From Tubiluchus corallicola (Eukaryota > Animalia > Priapulida), in contig JAQGDQ010000016.1 in NCBI GenBank assembly GCA_030141605.1, positions 188,282 to 252,281 on the forward strand: a stretch of DNA of 64,000 bases, read 5' to 3'. The notes under the pieces were generated by a model. That model had not been told where the DNA came from, ran no database searches, and saw only the letters and a list, made by a program, of their open reading frames with translations. Position numbers and translations under genes: made by a program. The number at the start of each line of letters is the position of its first letter. Position 1 is the stretch's first letter. Below are positions 6,601 to 57,644 of the stretch, piece after piece.

Positions 6601-6952
6601 TGATACACAACTGGCTCAGCCTTAACAAAACAAGCTGACTGCAAAATTCATGCTACTTCTAATTAAAACGACAAATTTAAATTTCTCTTTCACCTCGAAA
6701 AAAGTTGACAACAACGTTAAAATTTGGTTAAATTTGAGCCTCCCAGTAGGCAACCGGTTGGGCTGTAGTGAGTCAATTTCAATTTGTCATCGTGCCACAT
6801 GCAGTAAGATATAAGATATCAGTAAGACAAAACTTTCAAAGTGCAAATTGAAACTAATGTTTATTTGGAATAAATTATATGATATATTCTTGAAACACAT
6901 GCAGTGTGTCGTTATATGCACACACACTCATGCTTGCACACATGCACGCATG

Positions 6953-7051
<99 letters not shown>

Positions 7052-7772: not shown

Positions 7773-7816
<44 letters not shown>

Positions 7817-10800: not shown

Positions 10801-13800
10801 GCTAAAAGTGAACAGACAAAAAGTCAGTTAATTTGTGTGGGCCAAAAATTGAAGTTAATTAATGGACATACAGAATCTCAGTTTAGTAAGATTTAATGAG
10901 ACAGACTATAGAAAAGATGAAATTTACACAGCTAAATAAAGACCATTTTCAACATTATATTCACAATCTAATCAAAAGGCACTGAAATAGTTTGCTTAAA
11001 AATGCAAATCATAAATGCACAACGAGGAAAACATAGAAAAAATTATGTCTTTATTAGAAGCTGCCTGACCAGATAACTGTGGATCACTATGCTCTTACTC
11101 TTATACTCAAATCTATAAAAGATGGAGATTGATTTTACATTAATCAATTGGACTTCAGCAAAAAATTTCACAGCAACATACCTTTCCTGATAATTCTTCC
11201 CACTGGCTCGCCATCCCCGTTTTTTATGGCATCATTGGGTATGATCATTTCATCATCCATGCCGTTAACTTCATAACATTCTGGTTCTGGAGAACGAGAA
11301 CCAGAAACATATTAAATTTCCGTATTGTCTATACAGATATGCACAATTGCACATGGCAGAAAGTGTACAAAAACACTTTACTGCAAACATGATAAAAAAA
11401 ATCAATAGTCAAGATAAAAATATTTAAACATCAAAATGTGTTCTACAAATGTGTATTATTAATGTGAAATGCTACATATGTTTTTCATATCTCATGTGAA
11501 CCTGGACAATAATAATAATAATAATATAATATGACAGGGAGTATGTAGATGCTATGCATTAAAATTTAATATTTTCATTTTCTTTGACTTTTTTGTTTAT
11601 TTCCACTAAAGTTAGATAGTTAATTATCATCTACACCAGCTCGCCACAACCATCTCCATCATTATTGCTGTTGTCGTTATCATCAACATCATCATCATCA
11701 TCATCAAAATCATCATTATAAATACTGGGCTTATTACGTTAAATTTAATGCTGAACTTGATTATTTTCAACAAAAAACATTAAAATGCAGAAGCTTAAAC
11801 ACATGTATACAAGTTTTTACTATTCACCAAGTGTGTTGCTTATTATTTGTGTACTAGAAAAACAGTGTTTCCACTCGATTTTTCAATAAATCAAAGAAAG
11901 TATACTTTCGAAAAAGCAAAGAAATGCACAATGAAACAATGTTTACTATGTTTATTGCCACAAAAAATCATATCTAAATCTTACCAAATGCTAGTCTGTC
12001 TGCTGGAGGTGCTTTGAAACAACCAGTGATCTCTGGAATTGTAAACCTGGGATCTGTTTCACCATCCTTAAGAGTGAGAGGATATAGTCGCAAAACGACG
12101 ATGGACCTTGGACCAATTCTATTCACACCAGATACAAGTTGCTGCAAAAGACGTGCAAATACCAAATACTTAAAATAAAATTGGTGAGTAAAAAAGTACC
12201 AGGTTTTAGTAGCTGTTTAATTTTGAAATATTCAAGATACAACCATATTGTTGAATTATTCAAGCATACAGCATCCAACAAAACAACAAGAATATCTGCA
12301 ATTAAAAACAAACAAAGAAAGTACTTATGCTAAAAAGTAAATGAAAATCATGTGCTTGAACTAACACTCAAAATAATTGCATTAATTAATTCTCCAGATT
12401 TCTGCCTTTCATGCAACATTTTCAATTATTATGTTCTCTATGTTATCTCTATTCTTATTTGTACAGAAGACTTGTTCAAATTTGAACTTTCAGGCAAGTT
12501 CTCACTACTTATTTAGCTGGCATACTGTTTTGCCGAAATACATAAAAATCACACACACACACTAAAGCTCAAGAAATCAAATTAATTACCGAGAAGTCAG
12601 AGAACTCTCCAGATTCAAAACATTCTTGTCTGGTGATAAAAATGTCACTTGTTTGTCTTTTGACAACAGATTTGCGAGAGCTTCCTGCTTTTGATGCCGA
12701 TGTGCCAGCTTTTCTACCAGCATTGGTTGCTTGTGTCCCAAACTTTTGTCGGACATTAGTAGTTCGTGTTCCACTCTTTGTACCAGCATTAGTTGCTTGT
12801 GTCCCAACCTTTCGTCCCACTTTAGCAGTTTGTGTTCCACTCTTTGTACCAGCATTGGTTGCTTGTGTCCCAAGCTTTTGTCGGACATTAGTAGTTCGTG
12901 TTCCACTCTTTGCACCAGCATTAGTTGCTTGTGTTCCAACCTTTCGTCCGACTTTAGTAGTTTGTGTTCCAGCTTTTGTACCAGCATTGGTTGCTTGTGT
13001 CCCAAACTTTCTTCGGACATTAGTAGTTCGTGTTCCACTCTTTGAACCAGCATTAGTTGCTTGTGTCCCAACCTTTTGTCCCACATTAGTAGTTTGTGTT
13101 CGAACTTTTGCACCAGCATTGGTTGCTTGTGTCCCAAACTTTCGTCGGACATTAGTAGTTCGTGTTCCACTCTTTGAACCAGCATTAGTTGCTTGTGTCC
13201 CAACCTTTTGTCCCACATTAGTAGTTTGTGTTCGAACTTTTGCACCAGCATTGGTTGCTTGTGTCCCAAACTTTCGTCGGACATTAGTAGTTCGGGTTCC
13301 ACTCTTTGAACCAGCATTAGTTGCTTGTGTCCCAACCTTTTGTCGAAGATTAGCAGTCTGTGGTCCAGCCTTTGTTCGTGTATTTGTAGAACTTCTGCCT
13401 GTATTTAACTTCCTTCCAACAACACCAGGCTCTGCAGCTGAAATCTGGGGAGCTTTAACTGTCTGTGCATTCTGATTACGAGATTCTGAAACACTTTCTT
13501 CATTCGGTATTTCATCACCTGTTGTTATTAAAGGTTCTTTACTGCGAGCAATTGGAAAGCCAGCATCCTCCCCAACAGAAGGACTATCAGATCTTAATAT
13601 TGTTACATCGGGTTCGGGACTTATCTCAATGCCAGTTCCCTCAGTACGATCTGGTGTTTTACTTGCACTGTCGGTTGGAGACTCTTTAGCACTTTGCAAA
13701 CTGATCTCTCCACCAGGAGGAAGACTTTGAGGTCTAGGGTTAATGTCCGGTCTAATTTCATTCATAGCAGAAGACTGTCTGATAGGGGAAGTAATTTCGT

Positions 13801-16800
13801 CGCTAACAAGACTTTCCGGTCTAGGGAGTGGAACATCAGGTTCAATGTTTAGATCACTATCGACACTATCATAAGGAATTTCTGCTCCATAAGGTTTGTA
13901 TTGTACTTTGAACTCTGCTACAGTTCCTTCAAGTGTAAGCCGAGATACTAGCACTGGCATACCACAATCACTTGTCAGTTTTACTTCAATGTAACAGTCA
14001 TCGGAATCCAATTCTTCTTTAGAACAAGTGAAACCACTGCCACCTAAAATCAATTATGAGATCAAAATAAAAGAATAAGAACGAATATTGAAATAATAGT
14101 TAGTGTACATAAAACAAGAAATCAGAAAAAATAAAAGTTCAGATTAATACTAATAAAAAATACCAGATAAAGCGATACAACTGCTACTCAGAGCATAGTA
14201 GTAGATTTAAAGACAGTTAAAAGTTCAAAAGTGTAGTTCTATTTCAAGCAATTGAAAATGAGCAAGGAAGTAAATCTGTAGTGCATGGATCACTAAATAG
14301 AAATGGTTGCATCATTAAATATACGAAAATAAGTGAAATATGAAAATTTTCATTAACTTGCCCGCAGTTAGCTAAAACAGTTAGAAAGTTAGAAAAACTA
14401 TACATTAGTCAATATTCGTAAAATCTTGAGTTTGAAAGCGTGAATGCACAAAAAAAAACTGTGCATGTGAAATAAGGCGAGTTTCCTATTCACAGAACCA
14501 CCAAAAGGCAGAAACTGCAAAACTATGCATGCTAGCTTGTGTGGTTGATTTATACAGGGAAAGTTGTTACACATGGATTTGTATGGCAGCCTACTAATAT
14601 TGTAGGATAAGCCAATCGGATTAGAACTGCATATAATTTTATGCCATGGGTATTTGGGAAGTTGGTAGATTTTTTTGATTAATTTATTTCTCAATTAGTA
14701 TCCCACTACTTAATGGATCTAATGCCACCCACAAAAAGTACACAAAAAGCAAATATTTCTACTTAGCCTTACAAATTGAGGCACAGTTTAAATGTAAACA
14801 GATAATTCACGAGCAAATTTTGAGATCACTGACAAAAAACTTTTTAACTGCAGTGAAAATGTTCTTCACAGCAACATACATTTAAGAGGTTACAGCAGGA
14901 CCTCTAAATTAATGTACCTTTACGGACAAGGCTGCCAACTGAATTTCCATCTTGATCTCGAACAGCTTCATTAGGAATAAGAGTATAATCAGCCATGCCA
15001 TTGACTTCATCACATTCTGCAACAAAAGTACCAATAATTTGTGGCTTTACCAAGATTTTCCCAGGAGTTTTCTAGTTCATTGAAAAACTCATTGCAAAAA
15101 TAGTTTACTGAAAAATATATTCTAAAAAGCTAAAATAAATAAGAGTGTCTTTATTTTTTGAATTACTCTGCTAAATAGCCACAAAAAATACTGTTTTATA
15201 TTCAGACAAGGCATATCTCAATGCGTTTTAGACATCTCCTTCAATTAATAAGCTTGTAGGCCAAATTACTTTAAGAACAATGTTCCTCTTAATGCCTGTC
15301 TTGGATAACTTATAGAAAGGTGCAGAGGGCTACAGTAAATTCACCTTGTTGACTACAAAATATATTAAAATATGGAGTTATATATCACTAGTATCAGAAA
15401 AGAGGCTCAAACAGATTATCTACTAAGGTGAGAATTCAGACCTGCTCTGCTATGCTGTCTCAGTCACTCGAATAGTACAGCATGCGCACTAAAAGTGCAA
15501 GGTTTCACGTTCAAGTCTTGACTGATGGGCCATAACATTTCAGTGCCATCTTTTTCAGTCATCTAGCTGTTAAGCTACCTGTTGTATTCCTCATAATGTG
15601 GGCATGTACAAGTGTGCGCAAGCACTTTTGTGCAGTACCATAGGGCACTAATGTAAACTGAAGAGTGATGCATAATACAGATGATAGTCTTGAAGCCGTA
15701 AATGAAGTCATTTCTACTATTTTGATGACAGAAAAAATTTAAGCAGAATTTACTGATGGTTTCTGTTATGACGATTGTGCAACATTCTTTTTAAAGCTTC
15801 AAGGAATCAAGTTTTTAGTGGAAATTCTCATGTTTAGTTCTCACGACATTAGATGAGAAGATGACTGGTATGTATTTCTGCCGATACTTTTTACTTTTAC
15901 AGCATATTACATTACTGAAATTATTTTTAGCACAAAATGAAAATGCAAAGCTCATTTGTCAGATCTAGTTCCACAATTTTGAATACAAGACAATTTAATC
16001 AAAATGCTAAACTCGTAGAATTACAGACACTAAAATGCTAATTACATTGACTTAACAATTACAAAGACTGAAAAGAGCATGTCTTTGAATGTACAAGCAA
16101 CCAGCATACATTAACTCCATCCAGACAGGTAAGTGATTCGCCCTAATCAATGAGAAACTGGCACTAGCAGGATAGTGAATATGTAGATATCACAAGTTAA
16201 AGAAGTATGGAATCTCAGTTCACTCTCACAAGGTTCCGAACTCAGAAATTTGTTAAGAACATTTAGAATTAATTTAGTTATTGAGGACAATACGATAATA
16301 ATGAAATGTTGGTACAAATTATGTTAGAAAAATGACAGATGTCCAGCATACCATGACTATTTATTTAACATCATAAAAAAACAGCTAAAAATAGATTTTA
16401 TAAATAAAGACTAAAGATGGGTAAAAATCATAAGTTTGCCTTCTGTAATGCCCGAGGTAAGGAAATATAGAAGCTGTATCTGGAGACTGTGGTAACAATC
16501 AACATTTTATGATACTCTCAAACTCCCTCAGTGAGATACAGTTAATTCTGTCATGTTATGTGCAAATCACCAAGTTGTAATATAAGAAAATCAGACACAC
16601 TTCATTAACTCTTAAACAAAAAATTGTATATAATAGTGCTCTTCATCCAGCGAAAAAATGTAAAAAATGAAGACATTGTACCTGGAGGTGATGGTGGTAG
16701 AAAACAACCTTTAATTTCTGGTAAATCAATAGGCCTATCAATGGGAGAATCACTAGTTCACGCTGTATCAAGCCAGTACGAAATCAATAAAGGAAACGTA

Positions 16801-19800
16801 TTTAAGCACTACTGAACTAGAAAGTGCAGTATTCAGTACTAAACTATGGAACTCAGGCAACACAAGAGACAAACTCTTATGCTAAATAGGGGAGTGGGAA
16901 TTGATTCAGTTGTTCCCTTTGCAGTTTACTAAAATGCAGTAGGTAAAATTCATACGGATACAGACAAAATAATTTATTAACATTATTAAATGTTATTATA
17001 ACATAATAAAACATATAAAACATTATTATAATGTTATTAACATTATAATAACATACCTGGAGGTGATGGTGGTAGAAAACAACCTTTAATTTCTGGTAAA
17101 TCAATAGGCCTATCAATNNNNNNNNNNNNNNNNNNNNNNNNNNNNNNNNNNNNNNNNNNNNNNNNNNNNNNNNNNNNNNNNNNNNNNNNNNNNNNNNNNN
17201 NNNNNNNNNNNNNNNNNGGCAACACAAGAGACAAACTCTTAGGCTCCATAGGGGAGTGGGAATTGATTCAGTTGTTCTTTTTGCAGATTACTAAAATGCA
17301 GTAGGTGAAATTCATACGGATACAGACAAAATAATTTATGTTCGTAACATTGTTCCAGTAGCTATAGGCAAACATAAGAAATTCTACCTGGAGGTGGTGG
17401 TGGTACAAAGCAACCTTTAATTTCTGGTACAGTAAATCGAGCTTCATTTTCTCCATCTTTCAGCTTGACCGGATACAGACGAAAAACAGTAACTTGTCTT
17501 GGACCAATTTTATTAATGCCAGAAAACGCACGCTGAAAAAGCATTTGACAAGAGTGAGTAAAATGTGCTGAAATGCAGTCAAAATACAACTTTCTGCCTT
17601 TCATGAAACATTTTCAATTATCGTGTTCTCTATATTATCTCTTTTCATATTTGTACAGAAGACTTGTTCATATTTGAACTTTCTGGCAAGTTCTCACTAC
17701 TTATTTAGCTGGCATACTGTTTCGACGAAATACATAAAAATCATACACACACACACTAAAGTTCAAGAAATCAAATTAATTACCGAGAAGTCAGAGAACT
17801 CTCCGGATTCAAAACATTCATGTCTGGTGACAAAAATGTCATTTGTTTGTCTTTTGACAACAGATTTGCGAGAGCTGCCTGCTTTTGATGCCGATGTGCC
17901 AGCTTTTCTACCAGCATTAGTTGCTTGTGTTCCAACCTTTCGTCCGACTTTAGTAGTTTGTGTTCCAGCTTTTGTACCAGCATTGGTTGCTTGTGTCCCA
18001 AACTTTCGTCGGACATTAGTAGTTCGTGTTCCACTCTTTGAACCAGCATTAGTTGCTTGTGTCCCAACCTTTTGTCCCACATTAGTAGTTTGTGTTCGAA
18101 CTTTTGCACCAGCATTGGTTGCTTGTGTCCCAAACTTTCGTCGGACATTAGTAGTTCGTGTTCCACTCTTTGAACCAGCATTAGTTGCTTGTGTCCCAAC
18201 CTTTTGTCGAAGATTAGCAGTCTGTCGTCCAGCTTTTGTTCGTGTATTTGTAGAACTTCCACCTGTATTTAACTTCCTTCCAACAATACCAGGCTCTGCA
18301 GCTGAAATCCGGGGAGCTTTAACTGTCTGTGCATTCTGATTAGGAGATTCTGAAACATTTTCTTCATTCGGTATTTCATCACCTGTTGTTATTAAAGGTT
18401 CTTTACTGCGAGCAATTGGAAAGCCAGCCTCCTCCCCATCAGAAGGACTATCAGACCTTAATATTGTTACATCAGGTTCGGGACTTATCTCAATGCCAGT
18501 TCCCTCAGTACGATCTGGTGTTTTACTTGCACTGTCGGTTGGAGACTCTTTAGCACTTTGCAAACTGATCTCTCCACCAGGAGGAAGACTTTGAGGACTA
18601 GGGTTAATGTCCGGTCTAATTTCATTCATAGCAGAAGACTGTCTGATAGGGGAAGTAATTTCGTTGCTAACAAGACTTTCCGGTCTAGGGAGTGGAACAT
18701 CAGGTTCAGTGTTTAGATTAATATCGTCTCTTCTTCTGTTGCCTGGTGATTTATTTTCATTCACAAAGGAAGATTCTGGAGTTTGAGTGTCAAAATATTC
18801 TGTTCCATAAGGCTTGTATTGCACTTTGAACTCTGCTACAGTTCCTTGAAGAGTTAGCTGGGATACTAGTACAGGCATACCACAATCACTTGTCAGTTTT
18901 ACTTCAATATAACAGTCATCGGAATCCAATTCTTCTTTAGAACAAGTGAATCCATCACCATCTGAAAGCAAATTTTTATATATTATGTAACGTGTAACTA
19001 AATAACAAAAACTTATCTATTTCTAGACATTGCATTGACGTCACAAACAAGAGAAGGAATCTTAGCCTCACAAACAATAAATACAAAAATCATACCTTTC
19101 CTGACAAGGTTGCCAACAACATTTCCATCCTGATCCCTGATAGCCTCATTGGGAATAATGTCGTGATCAGATATACCATTAACTTCGTCACACTCTACAA
19201 AAGAGCAAAAATGACACACACATTTTCAAGAAAAACTATATAAACTATATAAACAGGTCAGCTAAATATATCCTGCGTAATACATAGTTACGAATAGCTA
19301 AACCAACTGATATCATAGCTAAGAGAAAAGCAAATGAGCACGTGTTAGACAAAACCATCACACTGCTATTTGAAAAAAGATTTAAAAGACACAGAAATCA
19401 TATAAACGTATGAAAGCATGCTAAATTAGGTCCAAAAGATTTTGTATCTTCACAGTTCCATTCAGGGTAAAGTTTTCTGATGCGAATTTTCTGCCTGGAG
19501 TAAACTTACCAGTGTGAAGTGCTTTATGAGTTACTATCAGCAAGACATTGCCAACTCTGCGACAGTTGCCACAAGCTAGTTTACAGTCTAATATGATACC
19601 TCTGTGAGTTTACTCTCAACAGCTCCTAGCACTTCTTACAGGAAATAGAGACAAGTTTATTCACTGTGAGAACTTGTGAAATATCCAAGCTACTGCAGAG
19701 ATCAGCAATTTGTCCACAGTAACTTCTTTTTAGTCTGAATGCTGTAGCAAAATTTGTCCCAAGATTAATTCATAGGAGATTTTGCTTTAAAATGTGAACC

Positions 19801-22800
19801 CTCTTGCAAGTTTGGTGGGGAGTTACAAGTCTTTTTGAAAACACATCAATCTGAATCTGTCACAACACACTATAGGCCTATCACTGGGAGAATCACTAGT
19901 TCACGCTGTATCAAGCCAGTACGAAATCAATAATGGAAACGTATTTAAGCAATACTGAACTAGAAAGTGCAGTATTCAGTACTAAACTATGGAACTCAGG
20001 CAACACAAGAGACAAACTCTTAGGCTCCATAGGGGAGTGGGAATTGATTCAGTTGTTCTTTTTGCAGATTACTAAAATGCAATAGGTGAAATTCACATGG
20101 ATACAGACAAAATAATTTATGTTCACAGCATTCTTTTAGTAGCTATAAACGGATGTAAGAAATTGTACCTGGAGGTGGTGGAGGTACAAAGCAACCTTTA
20201 ATTTCTGGTACAGTAAATCGAGCTTCATTTTCTCCATCTTTGAGCTTGACCGGATACAGACGAAAAACAGTAACTTGTCTTGGACCAATTTTATTAATGC
20301 CAGAAAACGCACGCTGAAAAAACATTTGACAAGAGTGAGTAAAATGTGCTGAAATGCAGTCAAATACAACTTTCTGCCTTTCATGCAACATTTTCAATTA
20401 TCGTGTTCTCTATATTATCTCTATTCATATTTGTACAGAAGACTTGTTCATATTTGAACTTGCTGGCAAGTTCTCACTTCTTATTTAGCTGGCATTCTGT
20501 TTTGACGAAATACATAAAAATCATACACACACACTAAAGCTCAAGAAATCAAATAAATTACCGAGAAGTCAGAGAACTCTCCGGATTCAAAACATTCATG
20601 TCTGGTGACAAAAATGTCATTTGTTTGTCTTTTGACAACAGATTTGCGAGAGCTGCCCGCTTTTGATGCCGATGTGCCAGCTTTTCTACCAGCATTAGTT
20701 GCTTGTGTTCCAACCTTTCGTCCGACTTTAGTAGTTTGTGTTCCAGCTTTTGTACCAGCATTGGTTGCTTGTGTCCCAAACTTTAGTCGGACATTAGTAG
20801 TTTGTGTTCCACTCTTTGAACCAGCATTAGTTGCTTGTGTCCCAACCTTTTGTCCCACATTAGTAGTTTGTGTTCGAACTTTTGCACCAGCATTGGTTGC
20901 TTGTGTCCCAAACTTTCGTCGGACATTAGTAGTTCGTGTTCCACTCTTTGAACCAGCATTAGTTGCTTGTGTCCCAATCTTTTGTCCCACATTAGTAGTT
21001 TGTGTTCGAACTTTTGCACCAGCATTGGTTGCTTGTGTCCCAAACTTTCGTCGGACATTAGTAGTTCGTGTTCCACTCTTTGAACCAGCATTAGTTGTTT
21101 GTGTCCTAACCTTTTGTCCCACATTAGTAGTTTGTGTTCGAACTTTTGCACCAGCATTGGTTGCTTGTGTCCCAAACTTTCGTCGGACATTAGTAGTTCG
21201 TGTCCCACTCTTTGAACCAGCATTAGTTGCTTGTGTCCCAACCTTTTGTCGAAGATTAGCAGTCTGTCGTCCAGCCTTTGTTCGTGTATTTGTAGAACTT
21301 CCACCTGTATTTAACTTCCTTCCAACAATACCAGGCTCTGCAGCTGAAATCCGGGGAGCTTTAACTGTCTGTGCATTCTGATTAGGAGATTCTGAAACAT
21401 TTTCTTCATTCGGTATTTCATCACCTGTTGTTATTAAAGGTTCTTTACTGCGAGCAATTGGAAAGCCAGCCTCCTCCCCAACAGAAGGACTATCAGACCT
21501 TAATATTGTTACATCGGGTTCGGGACTTATCTCAATGCCAGTTCCCTCAGTACGATCTGGTGTTTTACTTGCACTGTCGGTTGGAGACTCTTTAGCACTT
21601 TGCAAACTGATCTCTCCACCAGGAGGAAGACTTTGAGGTCTAGGGTTAATGTCCGGTCTAATTTCATTCATAGCAGAAGACTGTCTGATAGGGGAAGTAA
21701 TTTCGTCGCTAACAAGACTTTCCGGTCTAGGGAGTGGAACATCAGGTTCAATGTTTAGATCACTATCGACACTATCATAAGGAATTTCTGCTCCATAAGG
21801 TTTGTATTGTACTTTGAACTCTGCTACAGTTCCTTCAAGTGTAAGCCGAGATACTAGCACTGGCATACCACAATCACTTGTCAGTTTTACTTCAATATAA
21901 CAGTCATCGGAATCCAATTCTTCTTTAGAACAAGTGAATCCATCACCATCTGAAAGCAAATTTTTATATATTACGTAACGAGTAACTAAATAACAAAAAC
22001 TTATCTATTTCTAGACATTGCATTGATGTCACAAACAAGAGAAGGAATTTTAGCCTCACAAACAATAAATACAAAAATCATACCTTTCCTGACAAGGTTG
22101 CCAACAACATTTCCATCCTGATCCCTGATAGCCTCATTGGGAATAATGTCATGATCAGATATACCATTAACTTCGTCACACTCTACAAAAGAGCAAAAAT
22201 GACACACACATTTTCAAGAAAAACTATATAAACAGGTCAGCTAAATATATCCTGCGTAATACATAGTTACGAATAGCTAAACCAACTGATATCATAGCTA
22301 AGAGAAAAGCAAATGAGCACGTGTTAGACAAAACCATCACACTGCTATTTGAAAAAAGATTTAAAAGACACAGAAATCATATAAACGTATGAAAGCATGC
22401 TAAATTAGGTCCAAAAGATTTTGTATCTTCACAGTTCCATTCAGGGTAAAAAGTTTTCTGATGCGAATTTTCTGCCTGGAGTAAACTTACCAGTGTGAAG
22501 TGCTTTATGAGTTACTATCAGCAAGACATTGCCAACTCTGCGACAGTTGCCACAAGCTAGTTTACAGTCTAATATGATACCTCTGTGAGTTTACTCTCAA
22601 CAGCTGCTAGCACTTCTTACAGGAAATAGAGACAAGTTTTATTCACTGTGAGAACTTGTGAAATATTCAAGCTACTACAGAGATCAGCAATTTGCCCACA
22701 GTAACTTCTTTTTAGTCCGAGTGCTGTAGCAAGATTTGTCACGAGATTAATTCATAGGAGATTTTGCTTTAAAATGTGAACCCTCTTGCAAGTTTGGTGG

Positions 22801-37800: not shown

Positions 37801-40800
37801 ACTATCATAAGGAATTTCTGCTCCATAAGGTTTGTATTGTACTTTGAACTCTGCGACAGTTCCTTCAAGTGTAAGCTGAGATACTAGCACTGGCATATCA
37901 CAATCACTTGTTAGTTTAACCTCAATATAACATTCGTCAGAATCCAACTCTTCTTTAGAACAAGTAAATCCATCACCATCTGAAAACAAATGTTTATACA
38001 TTACATAACATGTAACTAAACAACAAAAATGTGTATTTTTGCCATTACGCTGATGTCATCAATAACCGAAGGGAACATAGCCTCACAAACAATATAAACA
38101 AAAATCACACCTTTTCTGACAAGGTTTCCAACAACATTTCCATCCTGATCCCTGATAGCCTCATTGGGAATAAGGTCGTAATCAGATATGCCATTAACTT
38201 CGTCACATTCTACAAGAGAGTAAAAATACCACACTAATTTCCAAGAAAAACTATATAAACAGGTCAGCTAAATATATCAAGTGTAACACACGGTTAAGTC
38301 GATCAAATTAAAAATGGCTAAACCAATAGATACAAAAGCTAAGAGAAAAATCAAATTAGTACGTAATAGACAAAACCATCACACCAGTAAAAAAGGATTT
38401 CCAATACAAATAAATCATATAAAAGTATGAAAGCTTTGCCAAATTAGTTCCAGAAATTTTAGACCGCCACGTGGATGTTCAGTGTGAAAAGTTTTGTGTA
38501 GTAAGTTTTCTGTCTGGCAGTAAACTTGCAAATGTGGACTGTTGTGAGAGTTATTATCAGCAAGAAATTGCAAACTCTGCAACAGTTGCTGCGAGCCCAT
38601 AGAGATAAGCAACTTGCCAAAAGTAATTTCTTTCTAGTCTAAATGCTGCTGCAAGATATGTCACGAGATTAACTAGTAGGAGATTTTGCTTTTTAATGTG
38701 AACCCCTTGCAAGTTTTTTAGCGAGTTACTTTCACGCATTCTTGAAAACTCGTAAGTCTGAATGTGTCATAAACCATTACAGGTCTATCAATGGGAGAAT
38801 TACTAGCTCAAACTGTGACAAGATAGTACGAATTAGAAATTGCAGTATTCAATACTCAACTTTTGATCTTAGCCAATATTAAAGACGAAATGCTATGCTC
38901 CCTAGGCGAATGGGAACTAATTCAGTTATTACCTTTGCAGATTACGAAATTATGGTAGATAAATTCATATGCATTCGATACACATACGGACAAAACAATT
39001 AATGTTCGTAACATTGTTCCAGCAGCTATAGGCAAACATAAGAAATTTTACCTGGAGGTGGTGGTGGTACAAAACAACCTTTAATTTCTGGTACAGTAAA
39101 TCGAGCTTCATTTTCTCCATCTTTGAGCTTGACCGGATACAGACGAAAAACAGTAACTTGTCTTGGACCAATTTTATTAATGCCAGAAAACACACGCTGA
39201 AAAAACATTTGACAAGAGTGAGTAGAATGTGCTGAAATGCAGTCAAATACAACTTTCTGCCTTTCATGCAACATTTTCAATTATCGTGTTCTCTATATTA
39301 TCTCTATTCATATTTTTACAGAAGACTTGTTCATATTTGAACTTTCTGGCAAGTTCTCACTACTTATTTAGCTGGCATGCTGTTTCGACGAAATACATAA
39401 AAATCATACACACACACTAAAGCTCAAGAAATCAAATTAATTACCGAGAAGTCAGAGAACTCTCCAGATTCAAAACATTCATGTCTGGTGACAAAAATGT
39501 CATTTGTTTGTCTTTTGACAACAGATTTGCGAGAGCTGCCTGCTTTTGATGCCGATGTGCCAGCTTTTCTACCGGCATTAGTTGCTTGTGTTCCAACCTT
39601 TCGTCCCACATTAGTAGTTCGTGTTCCAGCTTTTGTACCAGCATTGGTTGCTTGTGTTCCAAACTTTCGTCGGACATTAGTAGTTCGTGTCCCACTCTTT
39701 GAACCAGCATTAGTTGCTTGTGTCCCAATCTTTCGTCCCACTTTAGCAGTTTGTGTTCCAACTTTTGTACCAGCATTGGTTGTTTGTGTCCAAAACTTTC
39801 GTCGGACATTAGTAGTTTGTGTTCCACTCTTTGAACCAGCATTAGTTGCTTTTGTCCCAACCTTTTGTCGAAGATTAGCAGTCTGTGGTCCAGCCTTTGT
39901 TTGTGTATTTGTAGAACTTTTCCCTGTATTTAACTTCCTTCCAACAATACCAGGCTTTGCAGCTGAAATCTGGGGAGCTTTAACTGTCTGTGCATTCTGA
40001 TTAGGAGATTCTGAAACATTTTCTTCATTTGGTAATTCTCCGGCAGGCTGCGCCAGATTAGCAGGAAAACTAATTTGTGAGCCAACAGGAGGACTTTCTG
40101 CTCTTACGTCTGCAACATCAGGTATAATTGCACTCACAGGAGGAGGTTGTTCAGCTGGCTGACGGCTAAGCTTAGATTTTAAAATTGTAACATCAGGTTC
40201 AATGTTTAGATCACTATCGACACTATCATAAGGAATTTCTGCTCCATAAGGTTTGTATTGTACTTTGAACTCTGCGACAGTTCCTTCAAGTGTAAGCTGA
40301 GATACTAGCACTGGCATATCACAATGACTTGTTAGTTTAACCTCAATATAACATTCGTCAGAATCCAACTCTTCTTTAGAACAAGTAAATCCATCACCAT
40401 CTGAAAACAAATGTTTATACATTACATAACATGTAACTAAACAACAAAAATGTGTATTTTTGCCATTACGCTGATGTCATCAATAACCGAAGGGAACATA
40501 GATATAAACAAAAATCACACCTTTTCTGACAAGGTTTCCAACAACATTTCCATCCTGATCCCTGATAGCCTCATTGGGAATAAGGTCGTAATCAGATATG
40601 CCATTAACTTCGTCACATTCTACAAGAGAGTAAAAATACCACACTAATTTCCAAGAAAAACTATATAAACAGGTCAGCTAAATATATCCTGCATAATACA
40701 TAGTTAAGAATAGCTAAACCAACTGATATCAAAACTAAGAGAAAATCAAATGAGCACGTGATAAACAAAACCATCACACTGCTATTTGAAAAAAGATTTA

Positions 40801-43800
40801 CAAGACAAAGAAATCATATAAACGTATCAAAGCATGCTAAATTAGGTCCGAAAGATTTTGCAACTTCACTGGTACATTCAGGGTGAAAAGTTTTCTGATG
40901 CGAATTTTCTGCCTGGAGTAAACTTACCAGTGTGAAGTGCTTTATGAGCTACTATCAGCAAGACATTGCCAACTCTGCAACAGTTGCCACAAGCTAGTTT
41001 ACAGTCTAATATGACACCTCTGTAAGTTTACTCTCAACAGCTCCTAACACTTCTTGCAGGAAATAGAGACAAGTTTTATTCACTGTGAGAACTTGTGAAA
41101 TATCCAAGCTACTACAGAGATCAGCAATTTGTCCATAGTAACTTCTTCTTAGTCCAAATGCTGCAGCAATAGCCAAGATATATATTTTACGACTAGGCAA
41201 AAAAAACAACTATAATACTTAGTTAATGAACAAATACTCTTACCATTTGGGGGTGGTGTGAAGCAACCAGTGATTTCTGGGATGGTAAACCTGGCTTGTA
41301 CCTCATTGTCTTTCAATTTAACTGGGTAGATCCGCAATACTGTAGCTCGTCTTGGATGAATTTCGTTGCGACCAGACCATAAAACCTACAAATGAAGTAG
41401 CAACTCATAGTAAAACATGGACACACCAAAAAACTCGTGTAAACCTTGTTTTCAGAAATCAAACAGAATCAAGCTCTATCCATAACCATGGCCATACCAT
41501 CCTATATATTATGCTAAATTTTAAACATAATTTTAATATATTATGCTGAAAAATCTTGCCAGCAATATGCTTTTGACAAAAAGTTATAAACACTTTTAAC
41601 AATGGTCACTTGGAATCTTGCTATCATTACAGTTTATTAATTAGCACTGATGTAATATATGCAATTTTCAAACACATTAAACTATATTAAAGTAATATGA
41701 ATAAAAGCTGGCATTGTAAAATCTGGCAATAAATAAAATCTTAGTTTCCGAATGTTTAGTTTCCAAAATGCTCCACGTAAAGCACTATAAACAGTCAGGA
41801 CAATGAACATTCCAAAGTACTTGGAAATATGCAATACTGTTAAAACTATTTTAAAAGTAAACTGGTTATAGAAAAAGTATATTCTCTACTGGTGAATAAG
41901 TATATCTGTGCATGTCATAAGCAAATAAGCTGTTCACTAGTCATCTGTGCATGCATAAGCAAATTAATATTAAATTTTTTTGCTGGTCAGAAACAAAACT
42001 GTTCATTTATGTAAAATTGTGAAGTTTTGTCTCTGGCAAGTTAAAGATTTCATATAAATACATGCAAGTAGGTTCAAACATGTTCAACTACTCACACAGC
42101 GTACAATTTTTTCAGCAACCAGTTTATTTTGATATCTTTGTAACAATATAAGTCTATTATTTCAGGATGCTTGTTTTTGTTTTCCTGAACATTGATAACG
42201 CTTTACATACAGCAAAATGTTTGGTAAATAAAGAGATATATTAATGTAACTACATAATTACCAGGGAACTGGAAAAATCGCCATCACACTCTTCATCAAT
42301 AATATCGCTTGCTTGTCTCTTCACTATAGACTTTCTAGAACTGCCTGCTTTTGTCCCAGCTTTAGTTCCAGTATTAAATGCTCCAGTCATTCTCGCTGCT
42401 GTTCTAACATTAGCACCCAGTGTTCCGACCTTTGTTCCAGCGTTAGTAGCCTGTGTACCTGTTTTTGTTCCAATGTTAGTAGCCCGTGTACCTGTTTTTG
42501 TTCCAACGTTAGTAGCCCGTGTACCTGTTTTTGTTCCACTGTTAGAGCCAAGTGTTCCAGCTTTTGTTCCGCTGTTAGTGGTAAGTGTTCCAACTTTTGT
42601 TCCAAATGTTCTAGATTGTTTTCTAGCAGTTAGACCACTAGTCTCATCTGCTAGCACTGGAGCAGGAATTGGCACACTTGGTGGTGCAGCAGGTGGTACA
42701 TCTGGTGCAGCAGCAGGTAGAGTTGGTACAACAGCTGGTGCACTTGGTACAGCAGCTGGCATACTTGGTACAGCAGGTGCGTCTTCTGCACCAAAGGGGT
42801 TTCTTGATGCTCCCATTATTGCTTCTAATGGGTTCACACCGCCTGCAGGTTTTGCTTCACTAGTCTCTCTGAATTCCATCGTAAATTGTTTCTCGCCAGG
42901 TTCTTGAGGTTTATACTGCACTTTATACTCAGCTACTGTTCCCTCTAGCCTAAGCTGAGATATTATAACTGGCACATCGCAATCGTTTGTTAGCACAACT
43001 TCCACGTAACAGTCATCAGAGTTTAACTCGCCCTCAGAACAAATGAAGCCACTGCCACCTGTAAATTTTTCATATCATCAAAACTGCTGAGCAAGTTAAA
43101 AAAGTAATAAACAAACTTATAGACTAAAATAAAAATCAATTAATGCATTAATGTTACTTATCATGGTGCAAAAGAATCTAGCTGAGAAACCACAGTTTCT
43201 CATCCCAAGACTGACACCAGTTCATCAGACCAAAGGCCTCACACTTGATTACCTGCACTTTTTTAAAGATTTTGGCAAGCTGCAAGCCAGAATCCAGCAG
43301 CCAAAGGCATGGCCTGCTGAAAATACTATTTGTAGCAAAACTGGAGCCACAAAGAGGACATTGGATGCGCCAGTAAACTGCCAGCTGTGTAATAGCCAAG
43401 GATTACAAATAATAACACCTAGAGTGAATGTTGTGCTCAAGGAGCCAGACCCCATTAATGTGAAAGCTCTCATGCCTATCCAGCCAGCCGTGAATCCACT
43501 ACTGCATAAGACTTCCTATATACATTTTATAATGTCAGCAAATTAAGTCTTCATACCTTGCCTAAGCAAATCTCCTACCACCTGACCATCCTGATTTGTG
43601 ATTCGATAATTAGGAATCACCCTTTCATCTGCCATTCCATTGAGTTCTTCACATTCTGCAATCATGATCAAATAAAACTTATTCTGGCAATGAAGGGACA
43701 TCTTAGCAACATAATTGCTTACGTTAAAAAAAGTAACGTAAGTAAAAACAGCTTACAAACAAAAGGTAAAACAAACAAACTTCAGCTCGAAGCAGTGCAA

Positions 43801-46364
43801 AGTTTCAAGCCAAAGCTTTTTATATATACAATAAAAAATAAATTTATAACATTTTCTTGGCTAGGTTAAACAAGCGAAATCAAAAAATAGAAGTAAACAA
43901 TCACAACTCATCCATGACTGACTGACTGACTAACAAAATGGCTAACTAATTAACTAATTATATTTAACCAAAGATAATAGCACATTAGTTACCGAACGGT
44001 TTATTTTGTTTGACTTAAAGGTCGAAAATTAAATTCTACCTGACTTGTCATAGCAACCAGAAACATCAGGAACAGTAAATTTGGCTTCTGTCGCACCGAG
44101 AGCGAGTTTCGTTGGAAACAATCGTATAGCACTAACTCTCTTTCCTACCCGTATTACTCCAGATAACACCTATAAGCAGAAAAATGGGAATTAACGAAAA
44201 ACTTTCTTGCTACAAGTGGTCCAGGATCAATGTAAAGGCTGAGTTATGTTCAACATAAGTACTTATATTCTCCTTAAACGAAAACTGAATCCAATCTCAA
44301 ACTAAAGCTCAAAACAATCTACCCTGTATAAAGTATTGAAAGGGACGTACTATTTTTTTAGGAATACACACGCAATTTCGCGTTCACACCACCAGTTCTT
44401 CGCTGTCACATGCATTTCGCCATTCACTAGTTAGACAGCCACTAGCATCTGCATTCCGGAAACATGTCGCACAAAAAGGTGCTGTACTTCTCAGTGTAGA
44501 GGTGTTCATTTGTGACATACTGCACACATTATAGAGCTCATGTGTGAGCAAAGACATAAAATTTGCTGAGTTTTTGTGTATCTCACTCCACATAGTACGG
44601 TAACACAGCACACTTTATTTTCGGTTTTGCTAACATGTGCCACACGCTCCTGGAAGGTTTGTGCTTTTGAAAATTATATTCAGTTGTGATGTCTTCACTA
44701 GTTAGGCTCACCACAAATTAAGCGTTTAATCTATTATTTAATTATCAGAAATATTTTAGTATTATTATAGGTGTTAAAATGTATACTTTTTACTGTACTT
44801 TAAAATGGGGCATGATATGAAAAATCATCCAAATTTCCTTTATATTAACAGAAAATGCTAAAGAACGTAAATAGTCCACAGTGAAGTAGAAACTTTTTTT
44901 ATAATCAATAGTGTAATTACCAATGGCTCAGCTTCTACAGTTTCATCAACTGGTGTGGTGGTTAGCTCTACTGGAGGCGGAATGAATCGTGCCACTTCAG
45001 CTTTTGCTGCGATAGCTGGAAGAGCATTAGTGGGAGATAAGGCCGGAATAACTGGAACCTCCGGAATAGGATCAGCTGCAGCTCTTGAAACAGGTGCAGC
45101 AGCAGCTGGAAGTACCGGAGCTGGTGGAGCAGTTTGCGTACTCGGAGCTTCTGTAATAGGTGGAGCAGCAAACGGTGCACTTTTCTGAAGCACAAAGTCT
45201 TGAAACTTGGCAGCGGTAGTTGTTCTAGTCGTAGAACTTCTGATAATTTCCTTTGGAATTTGCACTCCAGGCTTAGTCCCGATAAAGGTACCAGTCTTTG
45301 TTGACCCACGAGTACCAGTTTTTGTTGCTGAGAAGGTTCCAGTCTTTGATGTACGTGTTCCAACTTTATTAGATGTTCGTGTGCCAGTTTTGGTGGCTGT
45401 AAGCGTTCCAGCTTTTCTAGATGTATGTGTTCCGGCTTTAGTAGATGTGGCTGATGTAAAAGTGCCTGTTTTAGTTCCACGTACAGAGCTTTGCCTTTTT
45501 ACACGCGTCGAAGCGCCTACGGTCTTGCTTTTGATTCTAACAATCTGAAACAAAATTGGTAAAATTCAAAAAAATTGAGGCAAAATCAGAGCAACAATCT
45601 ATGATTACGTGATCAGCACAAACAGATTTAATTTATAGTTTAACTCAAAGGAACAGCAAGCCTACAAACATGCGAAAGAACTACAGTTATGATTATTCAA
45701 TTATTTGTTTATTAAAGTAAATCAAATGCATTGTTGGATCACCTTCTTTCTCCATACATTTCTGTCTCTAGCATCATCCTGTCTGCTAGTCCTTCAAATT
45801 TAACTGAGTACTGCTATGATTTTTAACTATTACAGCTAGGTAAATCAAGGGCAAATAAATTACATTACAGTGGTTAGTGAGTGTGCTGCACTATAGTAGA
45901 TAAGCAATACCAAGCCTAGTCTGTAAATGGATGGATCACTGCCAAAGGGCTGTTTCTGGCTGCTCCACTTACTGCACAACAAGGTAGTTCAGATCCACAC
46001 AAGGCTAATTCACCTCTGCCATTTTCAGCATTTCATCATAGAAAATTATTATTTTTGACAATAAGCTGTATTCTGGCCTTACAACCAACATTATTAGTAA
46101 CAGATTCTGCTTTTAAGTGCTGGATTTTAGACTGCAATATGCATGTAAAAGATTAATACCAAAGTGACATATGGGTCTACTACTTTGCATCTCTGCGCAT
46201 CTTTGCAACTGAACACAAATGTTGCAGTTGACAAGAGATCCATTTTAGTGATGATGCCAACAGTTTGATTTTGACTAGTTTCAGCAAGTAAAATCAGTTT
46301 AAGCAATGTCTCAGAGTAAAAATGAATATTATAAATACAAGTCTTATTATAAATCTTTCTTATA

Positions 46365-46408
<44 letters not shown>

Positions 46409-49400
46409 TTTTGAAGGAAAAGTCACTAGAAGTGTCACAACAGGTTGGTTTATTCTGGGTAAATTTAATAACGGGAGGTATAAGTTTCAATCAACATGAA
46501 AATTATCCATTGATCTCATGTCAAAAAATACACTGAAATAGCCTCACTTGAATGCAGGGTAATGCAACAAAACGATAATTAAGTCTTTTTCAAGGTTCCA
46601 TCTATTGTAGACATTGAGAAAAAATATGGAACGCTTCACAAATTTGCATGTCATGTTATATCATTACAATGTCTTAATATCAAGTTGGTAATCATATTGT
46701 CCTAATATCAATATTAATGTCTTAATATTACAATGTCTTTATCAAAAAACATTTTCAACCAAATTAAAGGATTACATGTCCTTAACAAGAAAATACGAAA
46801 AGTCCACTTGGAAATTTAGAGGTCTCTAGATCATTATATGCACCAACATATATATATATATATATATATTCCACTCAATATAATATTAGGTGGATGAGTG
46901 CATTACATGCAAGAGGAAACAATTAAGTTCTTCCTATGCTGAATGGTTAAGTAGTGCTTTCAATATAAGAAAAATAACTAAACTTCTTTTCTAGTCTTTT
47001 ATTTTTTTAATTTTTTGCTTTAAGCTTCACTTTTACTAAAAGGATTATTAAACTAGACGACTGTTTATGATTAACTCACAAACTTAAGATTCTGCAATCT
47101 GACTGGAACTGCAACTGAAGCAGGTAACATGAATGCATGTTAGCTGTACAACACATACCATGAAATGGGATATATTTGCTGGCCTTTGCCTCTGTCTCTA
47201 GATCATAATTTTACTTTTGCTGAATTCACATGGGTTTGATTACCTAAGAACTGCATTTCTTTCCATGAAATTGCAACTTGTCACTTTTGTACATACAATC
47301 ACATGGATCAGAGGTTTTGAGTCTAAATATCGTCTCCAATGAATTCTTCATGCCTGATTACTTAGGAATAAATTGCATTTCTTTTCAAAGACATCTGAAC
47401 TTAGCACTATTTGACCCATGACCTTGAGTCAAGGTCAACCAATCTTGGGTCAGCCTGTACCATTTAGTTTCTCTTATCAAGAACATTCAACTGATATACT
47501 CTAAGCTATTGTTCCTGACACTGGAAAATGTCTGTGCCCAACCTACCCAAATTTATGTTTTTGTCCCTCGATAATTTTTTTAATATCCATATGACCTATA
47601 TTTAGACACGCACAAGAACTCGACACTACCATGTACCAACAGTTACGGCCATAGCTGGATGAGGCAGTGTCTACTGAAAAACTGACAGATATCAACTGTC
47701 CTTGACTCTTTGATCCAAGGTTGCTATTCATGAGTATTGTAGAATCTTAATCAATAAAGAAACCATTGACTCCCAATAAAATTCTGCAATATATTGCATA
47801 ATCTTAATTACTAAAATAATGCAGCACATTTGACTATTCACCTAGTATATTTTTAAACATGCACATGCAACAGAACACTAACAATAAAATAATAATAATA
47901 ATAATACATGGGCAGTTGTTATGTAATACATGCTTTTCCAGCAGTTAACTGCAAGCCTGTAGCTGTAGATAGCTGTACAAGCACTATGAATACTATACAA
48001 TATTTAAAATTTAAAAAACTGTTAAAATTAAAGTAATGCATATATACTGATTTTACATCATGTTTTTAAATTGACCGAGAATGTTGGTCTGGTCTTTTAA
48101 AAGCAGGGAGCGAGGGCACAAAATCTTTTATGATAAAATGACAGGACAACTCAATAAAAATTTAATAACGAAGCTCTACCAACACTTAAGAAGAAAGATA
48201 TTCAATACCAAAATATTTAACTGTCAAAAGTGGTAGATGCAATATCAATTTGGCTGGCAACTTTTTAGTTGACAAATTTTCCTTCTAATGAACATAAAAC
48301 ATGTTCAAAAAATGATACAAACAATTCAGGTAGCACGTGAAAACCAAAATTATTACCTGAGGGTTACTGAATACACTGCCTTCCTTGTATTGCATTTTGA
48401 ATTCAGATACAGTACCAGATACCATCAACTGTGATACTAGCATAGGTATACCGTTATCTTCTACATTGAATTCTACGTAACAATCTTCAGATGTTACAGT
48501 ACCTTCTGGACATACATAACCATCTAGAAAAAATTATCCATTTATTAAATGCAACAAAAGTAAGAGAAAGTCCTTTTGCTTTTGTTTGGGCATCGTCGAT
48601 GCACTGCTTTTCTTCTTTTACTGTAACCACTGAACATCCAGCAATCAATTTAATGTAAAAAACTGTGGCAGAATCTGAACATAGATCACCAAAAGCATAC
48701 ATCTAGAGTGAGACTTAACCAACAGAGATATTGTAACGGAAGAAATAGCTAATGGTTGTACTGGTCTAGCCAGCATTTGGATTTTTGTCAATACCTGGCT
48801 TCAAACCGGTTTCTACTGGCTGTCTTTTTCAAGCACTTTAACACAGTGTTTTACAGACGACTACATGTGAAGAGCTAGTTTAGCTGTAACTTTCGTGTTA
48901 GATATTATTTAAATAATAACATTATTTATATTATAACAAATTTCTTATTATAACAGATGATATTATAACAAATCATGTGCTTATTCGTTTAATTCATAGA
49001 TGTCACAAAGTGTAAGTTCACATAATCTTTATTCTAATTTTACATGTTTAAACTGTTCAAACTTTTCGTAACATCTTTAAGAACTTGGTAATATTTGTAG
49101 CTAGATGAGATTATCCTGCTTTTTACAGATCCGAAAAAAGCCTTACTTGTAGCAAAAGCCTTTCACTAATAAACTGCACTACTGCATTGCCTTATACAGA
49201 GCTTTGAGACTTTGCTCTATTACCTTAAAATATTAATCACATCAAGTACGGCAGACAAAATCACACCGGTAGTTTTCTCAGTAGTCACCAGGTCCAGTTA
49301 TGTTTAATGTGTGCCCGATATGCAGCACACAGCATCACCAACAAGTCAGCCATTAACCTCACCTCTTGTATAGATGTTTAATTAATGGCATTGAATCTTG

Positions 49401-52400
49401 GATAACTAGAAATTCTTACTTGCTTGGGCTTTGGTAACCCAACCAAAACAAAGTCTTAATCTAGCTTAATTTAATGAAAGACAAAGTGGGAATAGAAAAT
49501 TGAAAAAAATGAATATAGAATGTTTTAATGTCAGCTAAAGGTTGCTTAGTTTATTACACGTACAAAAAAAAATGCACATGTTTTTAGTGCTTCGTTTGCA
49601 AGGTAAAGGTGATTTTTGCCGAGCAATATGTTAATACTAAAATGCAAAAAATAACATGACTAGTTTATTTGCTACAGTTTGAAATGTGTAGTTAAAATTA
49701 AACAGTCACTTGTCTATAATTGACAAATAAAACTTGCAAATGTTGGTCTTAAATACTGATTTTTACTGTGCATTAAGTAGTACCTACCATATCTGATGGC
49801 ATCAGTTACATAGTTGCCATCTTGATCTTGAACATCATCAAAGCTAATCACGGTATCCATTGCATTGATCGGATGATCACAGCTTTCTACACTCGGATCT
49901 AGATCACACGTTTGTAAAAGTAATAAGAATATTAGTTTATTTTTTAGAAATTTTTACATATTTATTTCATTGGTCGTTACAAGGCTGAAATAAGTTACAG
50001 AACACATTAAAACTAATACAAAAAGTTTGGTACCTGAGAGAAAAAACTAATCAAAATGTTGAGAATAATGAATATATTAAGAAACGAAAAATGCAACTAA
50101 AACACAGAATAATGCCTTGAGAGTTTAACTGCACACATCAATCGAAATAAATAATGGTTTTATAGAATAAAAGTAAAGATTTTCAGATAAATGTAATGTT
50201 AGTAAAACTCTTTGTGTACTTCAGAAATATTCTGAGTTCTAAAATGATGCGTGTATGTGTAACTGAAACGTTATCTTTGCAGAAGTGTTCATTAAAAAAG
50301 TGCACAGTGTTTTTGTAACCGGCTGGCTATCATATGGCTTAAGCAATCAAAATATATAAAGATGCTAAACTATCGTACATTACAGAATAACTAAGTTCTA
50401 TGTAAAAAGTCTTTAACACAATCAATCAAAAACAATGAGCAGTAGGAAACTGCAAATTCTATTTTATTACTGACTAAGCAGCTTTTTGTTAAAAGAATCC
50501 CACGTATCTACAAAACATCACACAACTTACCAGAATGTTTTAACCTTTAAAATTAACTATAAAGTATAGTACAAAATAAAATAATTTTTTAGAAAATCAA
50601 ATTTGCTCATATTGAGAATTCAAGTTTGCTATAAATATTGTATTTTATATTTTATAGTCAATTTTAAAGACAGCCCAAGATAACCAGTAACATAAGTAGA
50701 AATGGTTTGGAAAGTTGTGTGGGCATTTTTTAAATAAATATGGTCATGGTTAAATGCCTGATTTTATCAATTGCTTTGTGTAATAAATTACCTTCGCAGC
50801 CTCGTTCATCTGAAAAATCCTGACAATCAACTATGTCGTTACATCGTGTTCCGTTGACACAATTGCGATCGTCACATCTCAAGAATCCATCAGGACACTG
50901 AAAATGTCCATCCTCTACTAATTTGATTCTTTTTTGACATGAAATAATGCATCGAAAATCCAGATAGAATGCTACTGCATATTACAATACATCACTGTCT
51001 TCAAACAATTGCCTCATTGCTGGTAAGAGATTGCATGTCTAATAAAGCATCTACACACTACACAGAGCTATTAAATACACAACGAATTTATACCATTTGC
51101 TTTTATAATGTCTTATCATGACCATTTATATCATATACTAGCATGTAAATGGCAGTCAACAGTTATGATGCAGGTAATATTAACTACTTACACTTGGAGC
51201 TCCAGAACTTTGAAACGTTGGAATAAAAATTGATGGTTTTCCTTCAGGTTTTTCTAAAATAAAATGCAAGTTCAATACCAGCATAGCATTTTTAGAATTT
51301 GGTATAGTCTAATGTGATTTGCTAATAGAACATCACAACTGCAGAACGGATTTGGCATAATTAATGTGGCAATCCTCAATGTTAATCCAGCTGGCTTTAT
51401 TTTATAAAGAAGTACATGTAATTTCTGCTGCTAAAAATAAATAGTTTATGCTTCATTCTGTCATAAAGCTCATAAAATGAAAAATTTAGTACGATTAGTA
51501 CGACATCGTACGATTTTAGTACTGACATTAGTACGATTTTAGATCTTTATTGTATTGACTGTACTGTCAGTCAAGCACTGATCATTTCGGGTATTGACTG
51601 AGAAAAGTAATGAAATACCAGGAAAGTATATTGACCAGTTCTTTTAAAAACAAAACTTAAAGATAAATTATAATTTTTTTGTTTCTTTAAAAAATTTGAA
51701 CTTTAAACCATTAAACTACGTTAAAATCTCCAAGTTTGCATTTTTTGTTTAAAAATTGCTACTATTCATTTTGTATGCATTTATTTTGACGGCAAAAAGA
51801 TTTATCTTGCAGTGGTCCCAAGAATATGATTAGCAACTGCAGAGGAAACAACCCATTTCAGATCAATATTTGATAAATAGTACCACATATAAAGCTTGTA
51901 ATTAAGCACGTGGATCTATGCAACCAATCACAGAGTAATTATAACCAAGTTACAGAAGAACAAAAAGTAAATTATTTTGATTCTAGCACAACTGGGCTAC
52001 ATTGTACACATTCGTGTAATTTTAATTATACATAATCTTAATAGAAAGATTTCTAATTATGCCAGAACAAACCCACATTTAACTAAATATTAGAAACAAA
52101 AAAAGAGGCCAAAAAATGTTAAAAATTGAAATTGAAACTGACCCTGATTTCGAACCAAGGAACTTTAGTTCAAGCATAATGTTTAAGACGGCTAAAATAA
52201 TTCAGCCTGGACAAGAGAAAACTCTGATTCAATCTTAGCAGCTTGGCAATAATTCCCGCATTGTCAAATGTTGGTGATAAATGATAGCCTATTAAACATA
52301 CCTGGTTCGGGCACCTCGAAACAAGCTTCAATTTCTAATGTCAAGTTGAGAGAAGCTTCACCGGGCAACAGACTCATGGGATATATTCTCAGAGAAGATG

Positions 52401-57612: not shown

Positions 57613-57644
<32 letters not shown>

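Follow-up and report, generated by a model that had tools for sequence, protein, structure and literature searches.

Organization of the Bead Gene

The window analyzed here is a stretch of 64,000 nucleotides from the priapulid Tubiluchus corallicola (contig JAQGDQ010000016.1 of assembly GCA_030141605.1, positions 188,282 to 252,281), and all coordinates below refer to it. This AT-rich animal DNA was filled by one intact gene on the minus strand, on which every exon and domain described below lies. The gene model gave the domain order TIL, a Cys-rich exon, six LDLa, D1, D2, LDLa, D3, D4, U1-U14 and LDLa, in which D1-D4 and U1-U14 are discoidin-like domains, here called beads. From D1 to U14, AG/GT was present at all junctions, the phases agreed and no stop codon was found.

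Twelve consecutive beads (D3, D4, and U1-U10) carried an insert directly after the strand GTV[AS]E[FY]K (12/12), as the earlier note on this DNA had claimed, and it extended over 216-435 amino acids to the exon end. Each insert contained exactly one KR|Q, a predicted cleavage site (12/12). In D4 and U1-U10, where 198-413 amino acids precede the cut, a Pro/acidic stalk was followed by a basic block, KR|Q, and a tail of 18-22 residues with one cysteine. The stalk was 87-161 amino acids long with a net charge of -7 to -18, and the basic block 108-270 amino acids with a net charge of about +19 to +51; the net charge of whole units ranged from -1 to +24 and was positive in 11 of the 12. The basic block was built of K-x-G-T-x-x-T-N-x-G-x 11-mers, with 20 copies in U10. 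The longest run free of acidic residues was 166 amino acids in U1 and 258 in U10, lengths reached by none of 10,000 shuffles, and 109 amino acids in D4, reached by 12 of 10,000. The segregation of charge into blocks therefore exceeds chance. For U1-U10 an acidic block, an acid-free basic block and KR|Q had been proposed; the order and the site were confirmed, but the basic block of U4 is interrupted by one Asp. S-x-E kinase motifs were scarce (0 in U1, 3 in U5/U9/U10), so heavy stalk phosphorylation finds no support. Each of the basic 11-mers (e.g., 12661-13340) holds roughly one Lys and one Gln; these could be substrates for cross-linking by transglutaminase or lysyl oxidase.

The D3 bead (44040..49898) had four exons and lacked the cysteine pair Cys4/Cys5 considered below. 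Its insert was a separate phase 0-0 exon (44921..45544) with the reversed order: RVKR|Q came first, followed by basic K-x-G-T 8-mers and a Pro/Ala/acidic stalk. D3 had thus been rightly listed among the insert-bearing domains, but its exon structure and block order are its own. The D4 bead (41244..43655) had three exons, with the insert at 42262-42909, KR|Q at 42313-42321 and Cys5 in the tail; its stalk, like that of D3, was Pro/Ala-rich. The short-stalk subtype U1-U4 occupied 31458..40619 (U1 39052-40619, U2 36631-38209, U3 33872-35788, U4 31458-33036) and had inserts of 269 amino acids (e.g., U1 39445-40251). The long-stalk subtype U5-U9 occupied 17388..30610 (U5 28729-30610, U6 25879-27760, U7 23150-25030, U8 20169-22182, U9 17388-19194) with inserts of 343-413 amino acids, and U10 (11985..15016) contained the 435-amino-acid insert at 12590-13894. 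U11 (9319..11286) was the same bead and had Cys4/Cys5; its loop was short, as had been stated, although by the revised boundary it measures 24 amino acids and not about 15. U12 (6293..8791) also had Cys4/Cys5, and its insert of 70 amino acids contained neither a basic block nor KR|Q. A furin-type motif, RKKR|A, was noted in another loop of U12, in exon C (6293-6431). U13 and U14 (3197..5756) were beads without insert and without Cys4/Cys5.

Relationship of the Beads to Discoidin Domains

A unit profile was built from eight insert-deleted units, with a shuffle control of 200 per query. It scored 44.5 bits against D1 (three exons, 53590..54986) and 39.3 bits against D2 (two exons, 52302..52996), both of them without insert, and 30.5 bits against U13, whereas the shuffles reached at most 6.9 bits. 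The main exon of D2 matched the b domains of neuropilin-2, which are FA58C domains, with E=8.3e-4. A possible further unit, U15 (about 2355-2998), was left uncounted: it had no resolved acceptor, and 75 of 200 shuffles scored as well against the unit profile.

A HMMER scan gave 16 matches, among which only the chiton protein XP_064614628 (P0002) aligned over the N-terminal two thirds of the domain, in repeated copies. The other 15 were dropped, since they scored under 10 bits per stretch and were mostly repetitive proteins of the Ig, FN3 or cadherin type or unrelated proteins. The predicted model of the chiton domain had a predicted local distance difference test score (pLDDT) of 70, with ten misplaced fragment rows in its input alignment. 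It showed a jelly-roll beta-sandwich and matched neuropilin b1 and the C domains of factors V and VIII (best E=1.7e-4). On this model, the insert position corresponds to the loop following strand 78-84, where confidence is lowest. A PDB sequence search with P0002 gave no discoidin, and a search with the chiton domain recovered only itself among 391 candidates. Word-based homologue searches with the D4 exon and with the TIL exon gave nothing, and a protein atlas search gave no usable match. These comparisons, which form an indirect chain through profiles and a predicted structure, support the earlier description of the beads as probable discoidin-type (F5/8 type C) domains. P0002 itself is annotated "mucin-2-like" and lacks a Pfam match, and its repeated domain, modelled as discoidin, may represent an unrecognised divergent FA58C subfamily.

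Linkers, Cysteines and the Mirror-Image D3

The linkers between insert-bearing beads were 5-14 residues long and mostly read FVPPPPPE; those of the insert-free U13 and U14 were equally short. Because the linkers are short and the low-complexity tract lies inside the bead, the tract would be a side branch and not an element in series. Together with the loop alignment on the chiton model, this bears out the proposal that the insert sits within the domain rather than between domains. The long Pro/Thr/Ser tract between domains that characterises gel-forming mucins was absent between the insert-bearing beads.

All 18 domains from D1 to U14 were bracketed by a first and a last cysteine. Discoidin domains are closed by a disulfide between these two residues. 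If the beads follow known discoidin domains in this, a cut inside a bead would not break the chain. In addition, Cys4 (before the insert) and Cys5 (after KR|Q) were jointly present in 13 domains and jointly absent in 5, and the inserts held no other cysteine. This co-occurrence suggests that a Cys4-Cys5 bond clamps the base of the loop. Since the pair also occurs in U11 and U12, the clamp would predate or outlast the cut site.

D3 mirrors D4 and the U beads, so that in both layouts a cut at KR|Q would turn the basic block into the free tip and leave the Pro/acidic block beside the bead. The clamp, the mirror image and the survival of the chain after a cut had not been raised in the earlier note.

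Coding Signatures of the Inserts and Duplication of the Array

The four inserts measured had a guanine-cytosine fraction of 0.51-0.64 at codon positions 1-2 and of 0.20-0.25 at position 3. Neither a stop nor a frameshift was found in any of the 12 inserts, and all five exon-B lengths kept the frame, whereas intron lengths did not. When five B exons (D4, U1, U5, U9, U10) were scanned, no in-frame donor was found near the insert start, the first lying at least 97 codons into the exon. The ratio of nonsynonymous to synonymous substitution (dN/dS) was 0.08-0.21 for the bead core, 0.28-0.34 for KR|Q plus tail in the comparison of D4 with U beads, and 0.5-0.9 for the stalk. The inserts thus bear the signatures of coding sequence, with purifying selection apparently acting on the core and on the KR|Q tail. 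The low ratio at KR|Q and its presence in every insert agree with the earlier designation of this motif as the site, at which cleavage is predicted.

Identity among U1-U10 was 91-100% for exon B, and for the A-B intron it was 95-100% inside each of the groups U1-4 and U5-9. By this measure, U1-U10 arose by recent duplication and fall into two subtypes. For this reason the array represents about three independent inserts and not twelve. An assembly gap of 100 N (17118..17217) lies within the array between U9 and U10, so the number of units is a minimum. In sequencing run X1, contig depth was 156 on the unit contig versus 8.5-23 on the D3 and D4 contigs. This contrast fits a genuine multi-copy array, but contig depth is a poor measure of copy number and X1 may be the source sample. 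The X1 contigs across 34000-46300 contained no GT-AG joints.

Several further traces of sequence turnover were noted. Two identical 64-nucleotide partial copies of exon C (16679-16742 and 17054-17117), consisting of its 3′ part with the donor, follow the assembly gap; they may be pseudo-exons or remnants of unequal crossing-over, or may have arisen in assembly. U10 is a mosaic, with exon B 96-98% identical to that of U5-U9 and exons A and C 73-81% identical, which suggests gene conversion confined to the insert exon. The B-C intron of U3 (about 34100-34600) had a 338-base-pair insertion relative to its sister introns and very high X1 contig depth; it is likely an interspersed repeat that arrived after unit duplication. 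A D3 intron (about 44275-44900) contained a high-copy interspersed repeat with X1 depth above 1,600, in which no terminal inverted repeat was found.

Flanking Domains and Comparison with Known Proteins

The gene extends beyond the window at both ends. The TIL exon (61299..61448; Pfam PF01826, E=8.5e-9) was the first one identified, and no additional exon was recognised in 61500-64000. It was followed by a Cys-rich exon, VWC-like by eye and without a Pfam match, and six LDLa exons (PF00057), together at 55890..60768; five of the six LDLa exons exceeded the PF00057 cut-off, and the remaining one had E=1.5e-4. Another LDLa exon (50792..50897; E=4.6e-5, 24.0 bits versus a cut-off of 24.1) lay between D2 and D3, with a short linker exon (51192-51253) upstream of it, and a last one (510..629; E=3.1e-9) past the bead array. 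Altogether, six of the eight LDLa exons cleared the cut-off and two fell slightly below it. One LDLa intron (57514-57725) held a long (GAT)n microsatellite.

A TIL domain followed by an LDLa cluster is a feature of SCO-spondin-like and ap2-type proteins. Among VWD-C8-TIL proteins, LDLa is the mark of SCO-spondin, and mucin-like proteins of lophotrochozoans characteristically contain F5_F8_type_C domains (PMC4948705). SCO-spondin and SCO-spondin-like mucins (limpet P-vulgata_3), one of which was found in limpet pedal mucus, have this cluster in common with the window gene and form fibre- or gel-forming secretions (PMC4948705 and PMC7333891). In contrast to this type, the discoidin-like domains of the window gene are divergent, number at least 18 and include inserts within the domain. 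On such a scaffold, VWD-C8 and a signal peptide would lie upstream of the window and TSP1 or a cystine knot downstream. We infer from the domain order that the gene likely encodes a giant, secreted protein built on the SCO-spondin/flatworm-ap2 scaffold.

The earlier note had related the gene to invertebrate glues, citing sea star Sfp1 and flatworm adhesive proteins. The kinship holds by architecture, and flatworm ap2 is a closer match than Sfp1. Mlig-ap2 of Macrostomum lignano is described in PMC6410801 and PMC8621496 as a VWD/C8/TIL/LDL protein with 46 large repeats and TSP1, the knockdown of which abolishes adhesion. It resembles the window gene in having TIL (with VWD/C8, predicted for the window gene) and then LDLa ahead of many large repeats in tandem (21 x 255 and 25 x 221 amino acids; PMC6410801). 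In the part of the ap2 sequence compared (supplement of PMC6410801), a repeat appears by eye to consist of a cysteine-bracketed domain of about 150 amino acids plus a tract of Thr/Arg/Lys/Ser; the LDLa pair is followed by a domain that resembles D1. To the eye, the bracketed domains look discoidin-type, joined by Thr/Arg/Lys linkers; such repeats are termed of unknown function in PMC6745481. The ap2 tract appears by eye to sit between domains, whereas the tract of the window gene lies inside the bead, is divided into acidic and basic blocks and has KR|Q at one end.

Other proteins share single features. The "mucin-2-like" XP_064614628 of the chiton Liolophura sinensis has seven tandem related divergent discoidin domains, modelled as FA58C, with Thr/Pro tracts of 40-190 amino acids between domains, and lacks an insert, a basic block, and KR|Q. 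Mlig-ap1 is a large cohesive protein with extremely basic K/R-rich regions that act in cohesion, an action blocked by heparin; these regions are terminal blocks, and the protein has neither LDLa nor a discoidin array (PMC6410801). Sea star Sfp1 is a large cohesive protein cut into subunits before secretion, but its cleavage is autocatalytic (PMC9382459) and not, as predicted for the window beads, at dibasic sites inside a domain. Searches of the open-access literature turned up no account of a cleavable, charge-blocked insert within a domain, and nothing on priapulid adhesion. The earlier note had likewise not recognised this architecture from any described protein. New here are the short bead linkers with intradomain tracts, the paired Cys4/Cys5 and the mirror-image D3; the scaffold itself is known and of the SCO-spondin/ap2 type.

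A Possible Convertase-Activated Brush

Convertase cleavage of a disordered intradomain loop, after which the two halves remain associated, is known from the insert domain of insulin receptor FnIII-2 and the S1 loop of Notch. These are signalling receptors with one copy per protein, other folds and no repeated charged brush. A comparable step could operate in the bead array. Before the cut, the insert would form a closed loop, in which the basic block would be partly masked by the acidic stalk and the bead. A convertase would likely cut each chain at KR|Q, leaving a necklace of disulfide-held beads with Pro/acidic stalks and cationic tips. The freed basic end may bind neighbouring chains or polyanions (sulfated glycans, glycocalyx, mineral or biofilm surfaces), and the Gln exposed at the new N terminus would probably become pyroglutamate by cyclisation. 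We lean, with slightly less than even confidence, toward a secreted glue or cohesive-matrix protein that a convertase would activate into a brush with cationic tips binding outside polyanions. More tentatively, we propose a protease-activated bottle-brush, in which split discoidin beads would carry a cut loop that unmasks a cationic tip, which may form beta structure or a helix, at the end of a stiff acidic stalk, the in-series mucin/ap2 design being turned into side chains and the ap2 repeats being discoidin beads of the same family.

Several observations weigh against this proposal. Pfam F5_F8_type_C (PF00754) was reached by none of 28 single exon pieces, the scan containing no spliced unit. 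PDB searches with the exon-B and exon-C profiles gave no discoidin, and the units of the window matched the chiton domain weakly (7-13 bits per domain). In the absence of a direct exon match, the fold of the insert-bearing beads is reached by a chain of homology, from the units through D2 to neuropilin and through the chiton model. The canonical R-x-K-R is present at the cut site of D3 only; in the other 11 domains, D4 and the U beads, the site reads S-[IV]-V-K-R, with basic residues farther upstream. The mirror argument compares one D3 with one D4/U lineage. The signal peptide and VWD fall outside the window, so that secretion is deduced from the remaining domains, and the comparison with ap2 was by eye.

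Departure of the D4/U site from the canonical furin consensus, together with the sharp charge segregation, would suit a polyampholyte brush that is never cut, in which closed loops coacervate or gel through their acidic and basic blocks and KR|Q is incidental or seldom used. However, KR|Q was retained in all three independent insert types and in two orientations, with dN/dS of about 0.3, and the blocks are unbalanced. We therefore consider an uncut brush unlikely. Coacervation driven by the oppositely charged blocks had been suggested earlier, and the segregation which that idea requires is real. Because the basic charge outweighs the acidic and 11/12 units are net positive, pure self-coacervation is less likely and would need an outside polyanion or modification.

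The short linkers also allow a different pairing of the halves. Neighbouring bead halves are 5-14 residues apart, versus 216-435 within one bead; in a discoidin domain the two ends lie side by side, and the near-identical U halves would be interchangeable. The C-half of one bead might thus fold with the N-half of the next as a circularly permuted discoidin, so that the insert becomes an in-series linker and cleavage at KR|Q releases monomers of a head plus a diblock. Such pairing would, however, orphan Cys4 of D4 (D3 has no Cys5) and Cys5 of U12 (U13 has no Cys4) and leave the first N-half and the last C-half unpaired. The five-proline linker would probably be stiff for loop closure, and the linkers of the insert-free U13/U14 are just as short. 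We regard a permuted polyprotein as distinctly unlikely.

The conformation of the tips bears on a third explanation, in which the basic 11-mers form amphipathic 3-11 helices like those of perilipin 4, apolipoproteins or synuclein. Such helices would bind to lipid, to oil or at air-water interfaces, and the role of the protein would be to capture lipoprotein or to coat hydrophobic surfaces. U1 and U10 showed a strong 98-degree harmonic, with a mean 18-residue hydrophobic moment of 0.21 versus at most 0.19 in 500 shuffles, and the recipe of perilipin 4, weakly hydrophobic 11-mers rich in T/G/V (PMC5889406), is similar. The 164-degree (beta) harmonic was nevertheless the stronger (0.29 versus 0.21), so that both periodicities are strong, and the 8-mers of D3 share the K-x-G-T motif without a helical period. 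AlphaFold predicted a single helix in the D4 exon (163-230) with local pLDDT up to 90, but this model was made without an alignment and had a mean pLDDT of 50, and the helical harmonic of D4 was weak (0.07). Matches to Pfam Apolipoprotein were below threshold, with scores of 21-45 versus a cut-off of 90. An interface-binding helix is accordingly improbable as the function of the tips.

It is very improbable that the array is a recent, largely neutral tandem expansion, with inserts that are merely tolerated or that most transcripts skip. In favour of this reading, members of a subtype are 95-100% identical even when introns are included, dN/dS of 0.5-0.9 indicates rapid evolution of the acidic block, and the D3 insert exon can be skipped in frame. 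Against it, 12/12 inserts are free of stops and frameshifts although intron lengths vary freely, the composition is of coding type, the cores and the KR|Q tail appear to be under purifying selection, and no usable donor lies at the insert start.

Implications

In known mucins and invertebrate glues, low-complexity tracts lie between domains and the brush is made of sugars, whereas the side chains of this array would be polypeptide. If the proposed convertase-activated brush is correct, it would include a built-in activation switch and could serve as a testable template for wet adhesives or hydrogels that respond to a trigger, a single unit of 400 amino acids being expressible in a cut and an uncut form. 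For the protein family, the array would show how large an insert a discoidin loop can tolerate, and the discoidin beads provide a structural hypothesis for the unexplained repeats of flatworm ap2.

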